Shown here: one piece after another, positions 4,064-49,948 of the stretch
How positions within the stretch are numbered: position 1 is the first letter of the stretch
Layout of the letters: every line of letters begins with the position of its first letter
Assembly (NCBI GenBank): GCA_002490525.1
Contig: DKUE01000037.1
Location: 62,014 to 126,013, forward strand
DNA length: 64,000 nucleotides
Direction: 5' to 3'
Origin: Ruminococcaceae bacterium UBA7212
GTDB lineage: Bacteria > Bacillota > Clostridia > Oscillospirales > Acutalibacteraceae
Notes under the pieces: model-generated
Told to the model about the DNA's origin: nothing
Databases searched by the model: none
What the model saw: the letters and a program-made list of their open reading frames with translations, nothing else
Program-made: the position numbers and the translations under genes

Positions 4064-5218
4064 ATGAAACTGCCGAAACGCGTTTACGCGCAAATTGATT
4101 TGGATGCAATTTGTCAAAACATACAAAACGTGATGCAAAAAGTCGGTACAGAAACCAAAGTCATGGCAGTCATTAAGACCGACGCCTATGGGCACGGAGC
4201 TGTGTCGGTGGCGCGGGCGTTGGAAAGCATCGGTACACACGCCTTTGCAGTAGCAACCGCAGAGGAAGCCTTAGAACTGCGCGCAGCAGGCATCACCGTA
4301 CCGATTTTGATATTAGGTTATATTTTTCCCGAAGATTTTCCACGCCTTTTGAAAAACGATATTATGCTGACAGTTTTCCGATATGAAACCGCAAAAGAGA
4401 TTTCTGCATGTGCCGAACAACTCGGGATTTGTGCACAGGTACATGTCAAAATAGACACCGGTATGGGGCGCATCGGTTTTCTGCCGAATACGGAAAGTCT
4501 TTCTGAAATCGAAAAGATTGCCAACCTTCCCTCTGTTTCCATTGACGGAATCTTTACGCATTTTGCCTGCGCGGATGAAGCGGATAAGACCTCCTGTAAT
4601 CGGCAAAAGCAGAAATTCCTTGATTTTTTACAGGCATTAGAGATGCGCGGCATACACATTTCATGCCGGCACATGCATAACAGCGCGGGGATTATTGAAT
4701 TTTCCGACGGATTCCTCAATATGGTACGCAGCGGGATTATGACCTATGGGTTATATCCGTCTGAAGAGGTTTTGAAAGAAAGCTTCCCACTTTCCCCCGC
4801 TTTACAGCTGAAAAGCCACGTATCTTTCGTGAAAACGGTCAGCAAGGGTTTTACCGTCAGCTATGGTTCCACCTATACCACCGACAAAGAGAAAACCGTA
4901 ATTGCCACAATCCCCGTCGGGTACGGAGACGGATACCCGCGGGCGCTTTCAAATGCCGGACGTATACTCGTGCACGGACAATATGCACCGATTATCGGGC
5001 GGGTATGCATGGACCAGTTTATGGCAGACGTAACGGAAATTCCGAATGTACAGGCAGGAGACAGCGTAACACTGATTGGCACAGACGGCGCAAACCGCAT
5101 TTCTGTCGAGGAGGTCGCAGAGCTCGCGCACAGCTTCAACTATGAATTCTGCTGCGGTATTAACAAGCGTGTGCCGCGCGTATATTTTCGAAACGGAACA
5201 TTGCAGGACATTACATAA
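4064..5218 (+). CDS. alr: Alanine racemase
   Basis: 384 aa. PLP-lysine motif VIKTDAYGHGAV. Full-length similarity pattern to Alr. Confidence 0.9.
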   Translation: MKLPKRVYAQIDLDAICQNIQNVMQKVGTETKVMAVIKTDAYGHGAVSVARALESIGTHAFAVATAEEALELRAAGITVPILILGYIFPEDFPRLLKNDIMLTVFRYETAKEISACAEQLGICAQVHVKIDTGMGRIGFLPNTESLSEIEKIANLPSVSIDGIFTHFACADEADKTSCNRQKQKFLDFLQALEMRGIHISCRHMHNSAGIIEFSDGFLNMVRSGIMTYGLYPSEEVLKESFPLSPALQLKSHVSFVKTVSKGFTVSYGSTYTTDKEKTVIATIPVGYGDGYPRALSNAGRILVHGQYAPIIGRVCMDQFMADVTEIPNVQAGDSVTLIGTDGANRISVEEVAELAHSFNYEFCCGINKRVPRVYFRNGTLQDIT

Positions 5219-16932: not shown

Positions 16933-17015
16933 GGAACAACACAGAGGTTATTCCCTACGGATTCTCAAATTCACTGTGAGGGATGTGAGATTCTTCGCTG
17001 TCGCTCAGAATGACA
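16933..17015 (-). repeat. REP-like element, family A, full copy
   Basis: The minus strand reads ...GCGAAGAATCTC...GTAG-GGAATAAC-CTCTGT-GTTGTTCC. Homologous by eye to 37624-37706 and 36496-36562. Confidence 0.65.
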
Positions 17016-36495: not shown

Positions 36496-36562
36496 AAGGT
36501 CGTTCCCTGCAAAATGTCCAATTTCATTCTGTTTGCGATTCTTCGCTGCGCTCAGAATAACA
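36496..36562 (-). repeat. REP-like element, family A, copy lacking one hairpin arm
   Basis: AGGTCGTTCCCTGC...GATTCTTCGCTGCGCTCAGAATAACA aligns by eye with 16947-17015. Confidence 0.55.
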
Positions 36563-37540: not shown

Positions 37541-37580
37541 GGGTTTCATCCCCTTTTCAATAGTTCTATATACAAAGCAG

Positions 37581-37599
37581 GGGCGAACTGTGTTCGCCC
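37581..37599 (-). terminator. Possible terminator hairpin of the parE-parC operon
   Basis: GGGCGAAC / GTTCGCCC stem, weak T-tail. Confidence 0.35.
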
Positions 37600-37623
37600 G
37601 TTGGAGTCGGATGGGGTTTTGGC

Positions 37624-37706
37624 GAAACAACACAATGGTTGTTCCCTACGCGTGCAACCGATTCACTTTGTGCGAAGGGAGATTCTTCGCTTCGCTCGGA
37701 ATGACA
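37624..37706 (-). repeat. REP-like element, family A, full copy abutting the parC stop codon
   Basis: GAAACAAC-ACAATG-GTTGTTCC-CTAC...AGATTCTTCGCTTCGCTCGGAATGACA ends 1 nt before the parC stop. Confidence 0.65.
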
Positions 37707-44097: not shown

Positions 44098-44179
44098 GTA
44101 GGGAACGACCTCTGTGTCGTTCCGTAGGGGGGAACAGATTTCCGCGTTTGCTCGGGCGAATGCAGGCATCCGCCCCTAC
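44098..44179. repeat. Inverted doublet of GTAG-hairpin elements (REPIN-like)
   Basis: Plus strand: GTAG-GGAACGAC-CTCTGT-GTCGTTCC at 44098-44123. Minus strand: GTAG-GGGCGGATGC-CT-GCATTCGCCC at 44179-44154. Confidence 0.6.
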
Positions 44180-46577: not shown

Positions 46578-46606
46578 TTGACAAACGCCGAAAATACTGT
46601 TATTCT
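46578..46606 (+). promoter_or_regulatory. Putative promoter of the T-box leader
   Basis: TTGACA, 17 nt, TATTCT. Confidence 0.45.
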
Positions 46607-46612
46607 TAAATT

Positions 46613-46881
46613 CATAATTGCATAACAGAAAACGCTTTGACAAAGAGTAAGACTGTATTGTGCTTCCAAGAGAGCCGCCGTAAGGTGTGAGGGCGGCAAG
46701 CGCTGAGGTCCGCGTCGCTTTTGAGCGGTTTTTCCGAAACGGGCAATTTTTACATCTTGCCCGCGTGTAAGAAAGAACGGTCTCCGCCGTTATCGGGTTT
46801 AAGCGGTTCGCGTAAGCTACGCGGGCAATTTGAGTGGTACCACGGATTTTTTCGCCTCATACTTTGTATGGGGCGATTTTT
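46613..46881 (+). promoter_or_regulatory. T-box riboswitch leader (presumably tRNA-Val)
   Basis: AGAGAG bulge (46669-74), distal GGTGTGA (46684-90), F-box CCGTTA (46787-92) and T-box core TGAGTGGTACCACGG (46831-45). Terminator TCGCCTCAT / ATGGGGCGA plus TTTTT. Confidence 0.85.
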
Positions 46882-46898
46882 GATGTGTGGGGTGCAAT

Positions 46899-47285
46899 AT
46901 GAGCTTACCGAAAAGGGAGCATCCAAGATTAAAAAACTTTGATTACAGTCAAAACGGATGTTATCATATCATCATTTGCGTAAAAGACGAAAGCGTTCGT
47001 CTCTCAACGGTAGGGCGGGGGCTCGCCTCCGCCGAAGCAACCGTACGGCTGACAAAATACGGAGAAACATTCAAATCAGAGTTATTGGATTTGGAAGACA
47101 GATTTAATTGCGTAAAGATTGACAAATACTGTATCATGCCCAACCATATTCATATTTTATTGTCTATCGAAAATGCGGAAACTACTTACGACGAAATTAT
47201 CGGCAGTGTTTCTTATTATGAACAAGTTTGGCGCTATATCGATGAAAATCCAAGCAAATGGTTAATTACGCATCATAAAACATGA
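46899..47285 (+). mobile_element. Short RAYT-like / IS200-IS605-type Y1 HUH transposase homologue (128 aa)
   Basis: PKREHPRLKNFDYSQNGCYHIIICV N-terminus, HUH motif MPNHIHILL, C-terminal SYYEQVWRYIDENPSKW. The segment between the HUH and YY motifs is unusually short. Confidence 0.65.
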
Positions 47286-47314
47286 GAAAAGATTTTTGGA
47301 ACGGAGGAAAATGC

Positions 47315-49948
47315 ATGTCCAAAGAACTTGAAAAACAGTACAACCCCAAAAACGTGGAGGACAGGCTTTACAAAACCTGGCTTGACAAAAAATACTTCCA
47401 CGCAAAACGAGAGGCCGATAAGGAAACTTACACCATCGTCATCCCGCCTCCCAACATCACAGGGCAGCTCCACATGGGGCACGCACTCGACAACACACTT
47501 CAGGATATTTTAATCCGCTATCACCGTATGGCGGGGTATGACACCCTTTGGCTGCCCGGTACAGACCACGCGTCTATTGCAACCGAAGCGAAAATCGTGG
47601 AAGCAATGAAAAAAGAGGGCTTAACGAAAGAAGACCTGGGACGCGAAAAATTCTTGGAACGCGCATGGGATTGGAAAGCCCGATACGGCGGCAGAATTAT
47701 TGAACAGCTTAAGAAAATGGGCTCTTCCTGCGACTGGGACAGAGAGCGCTTCACCCTCGATACGGGCTGTAACAAGGCGGTCAACGAGGTATTCTGCAAT
47801 CTGTATGAAAAAGGGCTCATCTATCGCGGAGAGCGGATTATCAACTGGTGTCCGCACTGCTTAACCTCTATTTCCGATGCCGAAGTGGAATATGAAGATC
47901 AAGCGGGTCATTTCTGGCATCTGCGCTATCCGTTCAAGGACGGCAGCGGCTATTTGGAATTGGCAACCACACGTCCCGAAACGCTTTTAGGCGATACGGC
48001 AGTCGCGGTCAATCCGAACGACGAGCGTTATAAGGATATGGTCGGCAAAACGCTGATTCTGCCCCTCGTACATCGCGAAATTCCCGTGGTTGCCGACGAT
48101 TACGTGGAAATGGATTTCGGTACAGGTGTGGTAAAAATTACGCCCGCACACGACCCGAACGACTTTGAGGTCGGTCTTCGCCACAATTTAGAGGTTATCA
48201 ATGTGCTGACCCCCGATGCGAAAATTACCGAGGATTACCCTGCCTATGCGGGTATGGACCGTTATGAGGCGCGCAAGGCGATTGTCAAGGACCTTAAAAA
48301 AGAGGGCGCGCTTGTAGAAATTGAGGATTACAGCCATAATGTCGGCACCTGCTACCGCTGCGGTACAACGGTTGAACCGCGTGTTTCCAAACAGTGGTTT
48401 GTGAAAATGAAACCCCTGGCAGGTCCCGCGATTGACGCTGTGAAAACAGGTGAAACCAAATTTATCCCACAGCGTTTTGAAAAAGTGTATTTCCACTGGC
48501 TTGAAAATATCCGTGACTGGTGCATTTCACGTCAGCTTTGGTGGGGGCACCGCATCCCCGCTTGGTACTGTGCTGACTGCGGCGAAATTACCGTTTCGCG
48601 TACCGCACCTGACGCATGCGCGCACTGCGGCAGCAAGAATATCACACAAGACCCCGACACCTTAGATACCTGGTTCTCCTCGGCACTGTGGCCGTTTTCC
48701 ACACTCGGTTGGCCTGAAGAAACAGAAGATTTAAAGCACTATTACCCGACCAACACCTTGGTAACGGGCTATGATATTATCCCGTTTTGGGTAATGCGCA
48801 TGATGTTCTCCGGTATTGAGCAGACAGGAAAAGCGCCGTTTGACACCGTGCTCATTCACGGACTGGTGCGCGATGCACAGGGGCGCAAAATGTCGAAATC
48901 CTTGGGCAACGGCATTGACCCCTTGGAAATCATTGACAAATACGGCGCAGACGCACTGCGCTTTACACTTGCCACAGGCAACAGCCCCGGGAACGATATG
49001 CGCTTTTCAGACGAGCGCGTAGAAGCAAGCCGTAACTTCGCCAATAAAATTTGGAATGCGGCGCGGTTCATCCTGATGAATCTCGGCGAAAACGAACCCA
49101 CACCGCATATTCCCGCCAACCTTATTTTAGAGGACAAATGGATTTTAAGCCTTTACAATGCGCTGGTTGCCGATGTAACGGATTGTCTGGAAAAATTCGA
49201 ACTCGGCATGGCAGTGCAGAAGCTCTATGATTTCATTTGGGATGTATTTTGCGACTGGTATATCGAAATTGCCAAAATCCGCCTGAACGGTGAAGATGAA
49301 GCGGCAAAATCCACTGTAAAAGCGGTGCTTGTGTATGTGATGTCAAACACTTTAAAGCTTTTGCATCCGTTTATGCCGTTCATCACTGAAGAGATTTGGC
49401 AGACCCTGCCGCACGAAGGCGAAAGTATTATGATTTCATCTTGGCCGAAAGCAGACGATGCCTTAAATTACACCGCAGAGGAAGCACAGATGGAACGCAT
49501 TATGATTGCGATTAAAGCCGTACGGAACCGCCGTGCGGAAATGAATGTTGCTCCCTCGAAGAAAGCAAAGGTATTCATTGAGACAGCATACGGTAACACC
49601 TTCCAAAACGGTACCGTATTTTTCAATCGTTTGGCATCCGCCAGCGAGGTACAGGTCGCCGAAGCCTTTGACGGTATGGACGATGCAGTCTCCATCATCA
49701 CAGAAAGTGCAAGAATCTATATCCCAATGGATGAGTTGGTCGATTTTAAAGCAGAGCTTGCGCGCTTGGAAAAGGAAAAAGCCGCTGTGCAAAAAGAGCT
49801 GGATTTTGTCAACAGCAAGCTGAACAATGAAAATTTTGTCTCAAAGGCTCCCGCTGCCGTCGTTGAAAAACAGCGTCAGGCAAAAATGCAATTGGAAGAA
49901 AAAACGGCGCTTATTGAGGAAAGTATTCAAAAGCTCGCGAAGAAATAA
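47315..49948 (+). CDS. valS: Valine--tRNA ligase
   Basis: HIGH-type motif [17 protein letters not shown] present, C-terminal coiled coil. ATG lies 7 nt after GGAGG. Confidence 0.95.

Follow-up and report, generated by a model that had tools for sequence, protein, structure and literature searches.

TnpA_REP class 2, the REP-associated tyrosine transposases (RAYTs; REP, repetitive extragenic palindromic), is set apart by a tyrosine motif of the form Y---NP, not Y---Q (PMC6006769). The closest described relatives of the gene considered here form subclass 2.4, defined by Quentin, Siguier, Chandler & Fichant 2018 (PMC6006769) and corresponding to the Group 4 RAYTs of Bertels, Gallie & Rainey 2017 (PMC5581495); members have a HuH motif of the form NH[IFV]H (Table 1, PMC6006769), an in-frame REP insertion inside the gene that is a published hallmark unique to the subclass (PMC6006769), and an unusually low substitution rate (PMC5581495). 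RAYT expression has been suggested to depend on read-through from upstream genes (PMC3733652). Here we describe a RAYT-like open reading frame (ORF) of 128 amino acids in a 64,000-nucleotide stretch of contig DKUE01000037.1 from Ruminococcaceae bacterium UBA7212 (the whole stretch hereafter being the window), where it lies between a valine-specific T-box riboswitch leader and valS. We consider it likely that this ORF is a RAYT in decay that belongs to the known subclass 2.4 (Group 4) and is unusually placed, within a T-box-controlled valS unit: it is a known kind of gene at an unusual address, not a new system.

Like subclass 2.4 proteins, the ORF product carries NHIH and YIDENP motifs, is small, lacks a C-terminal extra domain, and is encoded by a low-copy, host-resident gene; GTAG-footed, in-frame intragenic REPs are found in the window gene and in most of its relatives. 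Unlike them, the window copy is without 40 residues that include the WQ motif region, it has no flanking cognate REPs in the window, and the clade of RAYTs linked to valS has F/Y-Q and DEIIG where canonical subclass 2.4 proteins have WQ and DHIIR. Residence inside a T-box-controlled aminoacyl-tRNA synthetase unit is a context undescribed in the reports on the subclass (PMC6006769, PMC5581495), and a literature search pairing T-box with transposase found nothing relevant.

The Escherichia coli TnpA_REP (YafM/RayT, 4ER8; Messing et al. 2012, PMC3479197; Ton-Hoang et al. 2012, PMC3333891) aligns with the ORF at the HUH motif and at Tyr115, but identity is about 17%, and the E. coli protein is a subclass 2.2 member that has a C-terminal extension and whose gene is flanked by REPs, whereas the family of the ORF has REPs inside the gene. 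The HUH/Y1 fold modelled for a full-length relative is that of the IS200/IS605 TnpA proteins (PF01797), and full-length relatives score above the Pfam gathering threshold; unlike those elements, the ORF has no insertion sequence (IS) ends and no tnpB, is a single resident copy, and has Y---NP in place of Y---Q. The regulatory setting resembles that of Firmicutes T-box synthetase operons (RF00230), with a full leader, a Val specifier, and an antiterminator and terminator controlling valS, but differs in having an unrelated gene of mobile-element origin between the terminator and the synthetase gene.

The ORF and its internal deletion

The features of the gene that bear on its identity are as follows.

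46899–47285, + strand: truncated TnpA_REP/RAYT-like ORF of 128 amino acids, subclass 2.4 / Group 4 (translation, homology searches, alignments)
47010–47033, + strand: intragenic REP arm that survives, made up of GTAG and a GC hairpin, GTAGGGCGGGGGCTCGCCTCCGCC, coding VGRGLASA (sequence comparison with relatives)
47145–47153, + strand: codons of the HUH motif, H83-I84-H85 (translation; alignment to PEHMH of 4er8)
47185/47186, no strand: junction of a 120-nucleotide in-frame deletion (DNA alignment to the related locus L004; protein alignments)
47235–47237, + strand: codon of Tyr113 (RYIDENP), which a profile alignment pairs with the catalytic Tyr115 (YIYINP) of E. coli TnpA_REP

An earlier reading of this DNA, made from the sequence alone (the sequence-only reading), had named the ORF a RAYT homologue. 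The peptide motifs it quoted are present in the translation, and a large protein collection holds 343 homologues, with E-values down to 5e-67 and nearly all 150–190 amino acids long. The profile search that it proposed as a check gave a mixed answer, as the ORF scores 20.4 bits against Pfam Y1_Tnp (PF01797; gathering threshold 23) and 27.2 bits against its best-scoring model, NCBIfam REP_Tyr_transpos (NF047646; curated equivalog cut-off 80), so that family membership had to be established through the relatives. The closest full-length ones, P0002 and P0009, pass the Y1_Tnp threshold (34.7 and 36.1 bits), and the shortfall of the ORF against that model is explained by its deletion; each full-length relative tested likewise has REP_Tyr_transpos as its top NCBIfam model (47–76 bits, all below 80). 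Searching the Protein Data Bank (PDB) by sequence with the 128-residue ORF alone returned nothing significant; the family profile found E. coli TnpA_REP (4er8) as its best sequence match (E=1.4e-7), in an alignment that sets PNHIH against PEHMH and RYIDENP against the catalytic DYIYINP. Because of the 343 homologues, the relatives that pass the Pfam threshold and the profile match to 4er8, homology to the REP-associated tyrosine transposases is beyond doubt despite the sub-threshold scores.

The HUH motif, on a beta strand, is invariant in both alignments of relatives, and the position of Tyr113, on the C-terminal helix, is nearly so (at least 90% in both). An AlphaFold model of P0002, the nearest full-length relative (pLDDT 83.9, pTM 0.80), matches the structures of IS200/IS605 TnpA and 4er8, the latter with the best TM-score (0.61) and root-mean-square deviation (3.4 Å). 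The ORF shows the Y---NP arrangement of class 2 (Y-I-D-E-N-P) and the NHIH form of the subclass 2.4 HuH motif, and one intragenic REP arm is present in it (47010–47033); the family is placed in subclass 2.4, or RAYT Group 4, on account of the NHIH, (W/F)Q and Y-I-x-x-N-P sequence motifs and the missing C-terminal extra domain.

The sequence-only reading had also remarked that the ORF is abnormally short between the HUH and Tyr segments, and indeed it falls about 40 residues below its relatives. In protein alignments these 40 residues are absent as a single gap between the HUH strand and the segment YDEIIG...RYIDENP, and the closest relative, L004, has 120 extra nucleotides at the position corresponding to 47185/47186. 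The part lost corresponds to residues 97–136 of P0002, comprising a low-confidence, REP-coded loop, helix αC (residues 105–124) and the F-Q stretch. It is also equivalent to the region of W94-Q95 of E. coli TnpA_REP, which are listed among the residues that recognize the GTAG guide (PMC6006769). The WQ motif that precedes strand β4 in subclass 2.4 is thus deleted in the ORF, while the nearest full-length relatives have F-Q or Y-Q at this place. The 128-residue protein gave a poorer AlphaFold model (pLDDT 66, pTM 0.49), in which the junction and the Tyr helix score 44–68 and, of the β-α-β-β-α-β-α fold of the Y1 superfamily, strand β4 is not formed and helix αC is absent. The short form is not an assembly artefact, since three independent SRA assemblies carry the locus with 100% identity, their contigs matching over up to 8.4 kb.

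The deletion starts within 0–2 nucleotides of the foot of the second REP hairpin, now lost, making a hairpin-promoted or self-inflicted deletion a reasonable inference from the sequence; the missing 120 nucleotides may be the footprint of an enzyme cutting at its own intragenic REP hairpin. Differences from L004, polarized with three outgroups, place seven non-synonymous and four synonymous changes on the window branch, and three of each on the L004 branch. The former include K7E, at a position otherwise invariant in the alignment of relatives, and P44S, I57T and G94E, where all four aligned full-length relatives have the other residue in common. The counts are small and are only suggestive of relaxed constraint.

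The block that contains the gene has a history distinct from that of its surroundings. Window and L004 are 90–96% identical in DNA over 46800–47310, covering the 3' end of the T-box and the RAYT, as against 57–78% upstream and 55–72% further into valS; the RAYT gene itself is 92% identical, compared with 76–79% for its flanks. It is also AT-richer than its hosts, with a third-position GC content of 40% (valS, 56%) in the window and 38% (valS, 62%) in L004. It is possible that lateral exchange of the block took place after the two species had split, and also possible that it shares the low Group 4 substitution rate. Under either history, the deletion is young compared with the locus itself.

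Several points weigh against decay. The reading frame, start codon, Shine-Dalgarno sequence, HUH motif and catalytic Tyr are all intact, with no stop codon or frameshift gained; the N-terminal β-α-β-β core of the 128-residue model stays confident, so that a smaller folded protein would be possible; the substitution counts are too few for a significant test of the ratio of non-synonymous to synonymous rates (dN/dS); and all available copies, the three SRA contigs, are 100% identical, leaving no polymorphism among them for a population test for selection. The ORF has diverged by only about 8% in DNA from L004, and the lack of further lesions may simply mean that the deletion is recent, which makes the intact frame a weaker argument for selection.

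The sequence-only reading had left open whether the ORF is decaying or a minimal, domesticated form. The evidence favours the former: helix αC and the W/F-Q segment are lost, the AlphaFold2 model is poor, and changes such as K7E have accumulated. We think it unlikely that the 128-residue protein is a functional, minimal HUH-Tyr protein, tied through the T-box to tRNA-Val charging and so linking starvation to single-stranded DNA (ssDNA) or REPs. The in-frame nature of the deletion, together with the retained signals and catalytic residues, speaks for such a protein, a short ENAETT linker could in principle join strands β3 and β4, and linkage of RAYT to valS recurs across several genomes. Yet the short form is known from one clone only, the other valS-linked relatives all being full length, and in two of their three gene layouts (B and C, below) no T-box controls the RAYT; the helix αC and W/F-Q region that contacts GTAG is gone (PMC6006769), model confidence is low at the catalytic helix, and the window branch shows replacements at conserved positions.

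The T-box leader, valS and the valS-linked relatives

The ORF is flanked by the following features.

46578–46606, + strand: sigma-70-like promoter upstream of the valS leader, TTGACA-17-TATTCT, TG-extended, 10/12 matches (motif scan)
46628–46862, + strand: Val-specific T-box riboswitch leader (Rfam RF00230, full length, 1–219)
46714–46716, + strand: specifier codon, GUC for Val, with a purine after it (assigned by alignment to the RF00230 consensus)
46852–46881, + strand: intrinsic terminator of the T-box, an 11-bp stem (46852–46876) followed by TTTTT, the T-run ending at 46881
46889–46894, + strand: Shine-Dalgarno-like GGGGTG, 4 nucleotides 5' of the ORF ATG (read from the sequence)
47303–47307, + strand: Shine-Dalgarno sequence of valS, GGAGG (sequence; also kept in L004)
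47315–49948, + strand: valS, valyl-tRNA synthetase (ValRS), 877 amino acids (Pfam tRNA-synt_1, Anticodon_1, Val_tRNA-synt_C)

The T-box leader is complete, as had been claimed, with the elements AGAGAG, GGTGTGA, CCGTTA and TGAGTGGTACCACGG in place, its UGGU lying within TGAGTGGTACC, and a terminator ending at 46881. It scores 106 bits against RF00230 (gathering threshold 93; E=2e-23) and combines a specifier, the T-box sequence and alternative terminator and antiterminator structures. In an alignment of orthologous leaders the promoter TTGACA is kept, the specifier column reads GTC in L004 and L090 and GTA in L088, all Val codons, and the terminator hairpin is the same in all four leaders, bar one stem base in L004.

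The spacing given by the sequence-only reading was likewise confirmed: the ORF begins with ATG at 46899, 17 nucleotides past the terminator, and ends with TGA at 47283–47285, 29 nucleotides before the valS ATG at 47315, which has its own GGAGG. The counterpart of the ORF Shine-Dalgarno site in L004 is GGAGTG. A sequence scan found no terminator-like site between the T-box terminator and valS, and the sole same-strand promoter-like match between T-box and valS (TTGATT-17-TATCAT, 9/12, 46939–46967) falls inside the ORF, in a protein-constrained stretch. Because no separating terminator-like or strong promoter-like site is present, the ORF would be expected to be transcribed only by T-box read-through, together with valS, as the sequence-only reading had proposed. 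Borrowing a host promoter is the norm in this family: of 86 family loci, 70 have an upstream neighbour that points the same way, and the median gap is 39 nucleotides; this fits the suggested dependence of RAYT expression on read-through (PMC3733652).

These arrangements also bear on a role in cis, in which the ORF would serve valS expression mainly as an RNA element or a translated spacer (through coupling, protection from Rho or RNase, or an internal promoter) and the protein would be irrelevant. The ORF stop codon overlaps an ATG in the valS frame (ATGA, 47282–47285), use of which would add 11 residues to ValRS, the regular valS start follows 29 nucleotides on, a promoter-like match lies inside the ORF (46939–46967), and the RAYT-valS gaps in relatives are tight, at 13–29 nucleotides. 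We nevertheless regard this role as improbable: the ATGA start is probably not used, because L004 has TAA there and lacks the overlap, valS has a strong GGAGG of its own, valS in L088 is expressed under the same T-box with no ORF in between, and the promoter match reaches only 9/12 in a stretch under protein constraint.

The ValRS of the window also lacks about 24 residues present in the ValRS of L004, L007 and L088 (877 vs 900 amino acids), at about residues 300–310 (near 48220–48235), a second in-frame deletion in the window lineage.

Comparison of valS leaders among relatives, suggested by the sequence-only reading, showed that a RAYT beside valS is not a private, one-off insertion and recurs in three layouts, listed here.

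Layout A: T-box, RAYT, valS, in the window, L004 (RAYT 89% identical in amino acids) and L090
Layout B: DUF4364, RAYT, T-box, valS, in L088 (4001–4861)
Layout C: DUF4364, RAYT, 13 nucleotides, valS, in L006 (5001–5538) and L007 (5001–5517), where a search with the threshold relaxed still found no T-box

Layouts A and B have orthologous T-box leaders, and describing the ORF as inserted was fair, since in L088 the orthologous T-box directly precedes valS. As layouts B and C differ from A, T-box control of the RAYT is lineage-specific, confined to layout A and not a conserved property of the clade, and is probably incidental. In the genome collection, linkage itself is confined to a close clade: valS was not found beside any of 80 more distant relatives (52% identity or less), the only extra match being a distant paralogue in L072. 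The broader proposal that the valS-linked RAYT clade constitutes a domesticated HUH-Tyr protein coupled to valS and T-box-gated in the window, with the 128-residue form working and valine starvation switching on ssDNA or REP processing, strikes us as very unlikely.

Host operons are occupied elsewhere in the family as well. In L089 (4001–4519) one of the more distant relatives, P0013, of 172 residues, lies in an aro operon between a 3-dehydroquinate-synthase-like gene and the gene for EPSP synthase, its start and stop codons overlapping those of its neighbours. A second, distant Y1_Tnp-like gene of 180 amino acids follows yebC in L006 (911–1453), within the same long operon that ends with RAYT-valS, placing two RAYT paralogues within 5 kb.

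GTAG hairpins within the gene and across the window

The L004 gene contains an exact 28-nucleotide inverted repeat within its coding sequence: the first arm, ACGGTAGGGCGGGGGCTTGCCCCCGCCG, codes TVGRGLAPA, and its reverse complement about 170 nucleotides downstream codes AGASPRPTV (L004 1874–2079). Each arm is a GTAG-footed, REP-like GC hairpin, and the two bracket the segment coding for helix αA and the HUH strand. Only the first arm survives in the window gene, with one stem mismatch. About 65 of 84 relatives, drawn from different species, have two inverted GTAGGG-hairpin arms, with 10–31 nucleotides exact, at two fixed sites in the coding sequence (gene nucleotides ~112–117 and ~280–298; L006, L007 and most of L008–L090). 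The hairpin sequence varies between genomes, and the arms of one gene match each other. We considered the inverted intragenic pair as a new feature and rejected it, REP insertion in tnpA_REP having already been described (PMC6006769); the fixed two-site inverted layout and the arm-to-arm matching may merit a closer look.

REP copies occur near some of these genes. In L007 one such copy, GTAGGGCGGGTGGCTTGCCCCCGCC, lies at 4964–4988 in the 39-nucleotide gap between DUF4364 and the RAYT start, and is nearer to an L004-type arm than to the intragenic arms of L007 itself. Long BIME-like arrays of alternating REPs flank the RAYT in L076 (5348–5962 and 6512–6755; period ~82 nucleotides) and L009 (5920–6801; period ~42 nucleotides), their REPs matching or nearly matching the intragenic arm of the gene. 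Overall, extragenic REP copies are found in 17 of 81 family loci, and in these 17 they match the gene's own arms, differing at 0–4 of 22 positions. The family rule is that the cognate REP of a gene is that of its own intragenic arms.

Hairpins with a GTAG foot are also dispersed through the window, where GTAGRGAAYRACCNNTGTGTYGTTYC has four copies against zero expected by chance; the repeat type can be written GTAGGGAACGACC...GTCGTTCCCTAC. Intergenic clusters of GTAG-type hairpins lie at 37579–37649, a REPIN-like doublet (CAGGGGCGAACTGTGTTCGCCC ... GAAACAACACAATGGTTGTTCCCTAC), and at 44098–44179, where a 'double-foot' element, GTAGGGG...CCCCTAC, comes after a REP. Another family of short repeats, GATTCTTCGCTxCGCTCRGAATRAC, stands beside some of the GTAG hairpins (16990–17013, 36538–36562 and 37682–37706).

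The sequence-only reading had singled out the ORF as the only candidate partner of these repeats in the window. A six-frame search with hidden Markov models found no other RAYT-like ORF in the 64 kb, and this part of the claim holds; the partnership itself is not supported. Over the first 22 positions the arm of the ORF and the dispersed repeat disagree at 11, and the arm has no second copy in the window at up to three mismatches, so that cognate REPs, flanking within ~1 kb or dispersed as in a REPtron, are absent from it. The segment of the protein that would contact GTAG is deleted. Since the extragenic REPs of the family match the arms of their own genes and those of the window do not, the dispersed repeats would, by the family rule, be assigned to another RAYT, one that has been lost or lies elsewhere in the genome. 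A metagenome scan for a RAYT with arms equal to the dispersed repeat (GTAGGGAAYRAC...GTYRTTCCCTAC) returned 12 loci, of which only L099 lies in a RAYT-like ORF; none is from the organism of the window, and the scan is uninformative.

The truncated ORF is accordingly an unlikely partner, and that its enzyme spreads or maintains the dispersed repeats of this genome is extremely unlikely, for although it is the sole RAYT-like ORF in the window and its arm has the GTAGGG foot in common with the repeats, agreement beyond that foot is at chance level (5 of the next 16 positions), the arms of relatives predict their extragenic copies, the GTAG-contacting segment is gone, and genomes of the group can hold several RAYT paralogues (two within 5 kb in L006).

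A proposed course of events and what it would mean

Decay of a resident gene would account for the locus in the following way. The ORF would be the remnant of a single-copy, host-resident TnpA_REP gene of the valS leader region in this group of Clostridia. By the sequence, transcription starts at the promoter at 46578–46606, and the Val T-box stops most transcripts at the terminator at 46852–46881; when tRNA-Val is uncharged, read-through would yield one mRNA carrying the ORF and valS, each with its own ribosome-binding site. An in-frame loss of 40 codons, starting from the foot of the second inverted REP hairpin, has removed the REP-coded loop, helix αC and the W/F-Q stretch, and the resulting protein of 128 residues most likely can neither adopt the fold of a REP nuclease nor work as one, despite its HUH motif and Tyr. 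The ORF would now be a passenger, still transcribed and probably translated owing to its position, with T-box control a by-product of that position and not a designed link between valine starvation and a transposase.

Should this explanation be correct, little would change in the general picture of these genes. The locus would offer a clear example of a RAYT riding on host transcription, here in a riboswitch-controlled essential operon, and of the erosion of such a gene by a deletion beginning at a REP hairpin inside the gene itself. For annotation, the ORF would best be labelled a truncated TnpA_REP-like gene, not an active transposase. For the evolution of RAYTs and REPINs, its use would lie in the comparison of three placements of a RAYT relative to a single orthologous T-box, and in a gene far less diverged than its flanks, which may reflect either recent lateral replacement or the slow evolution of Group 4.

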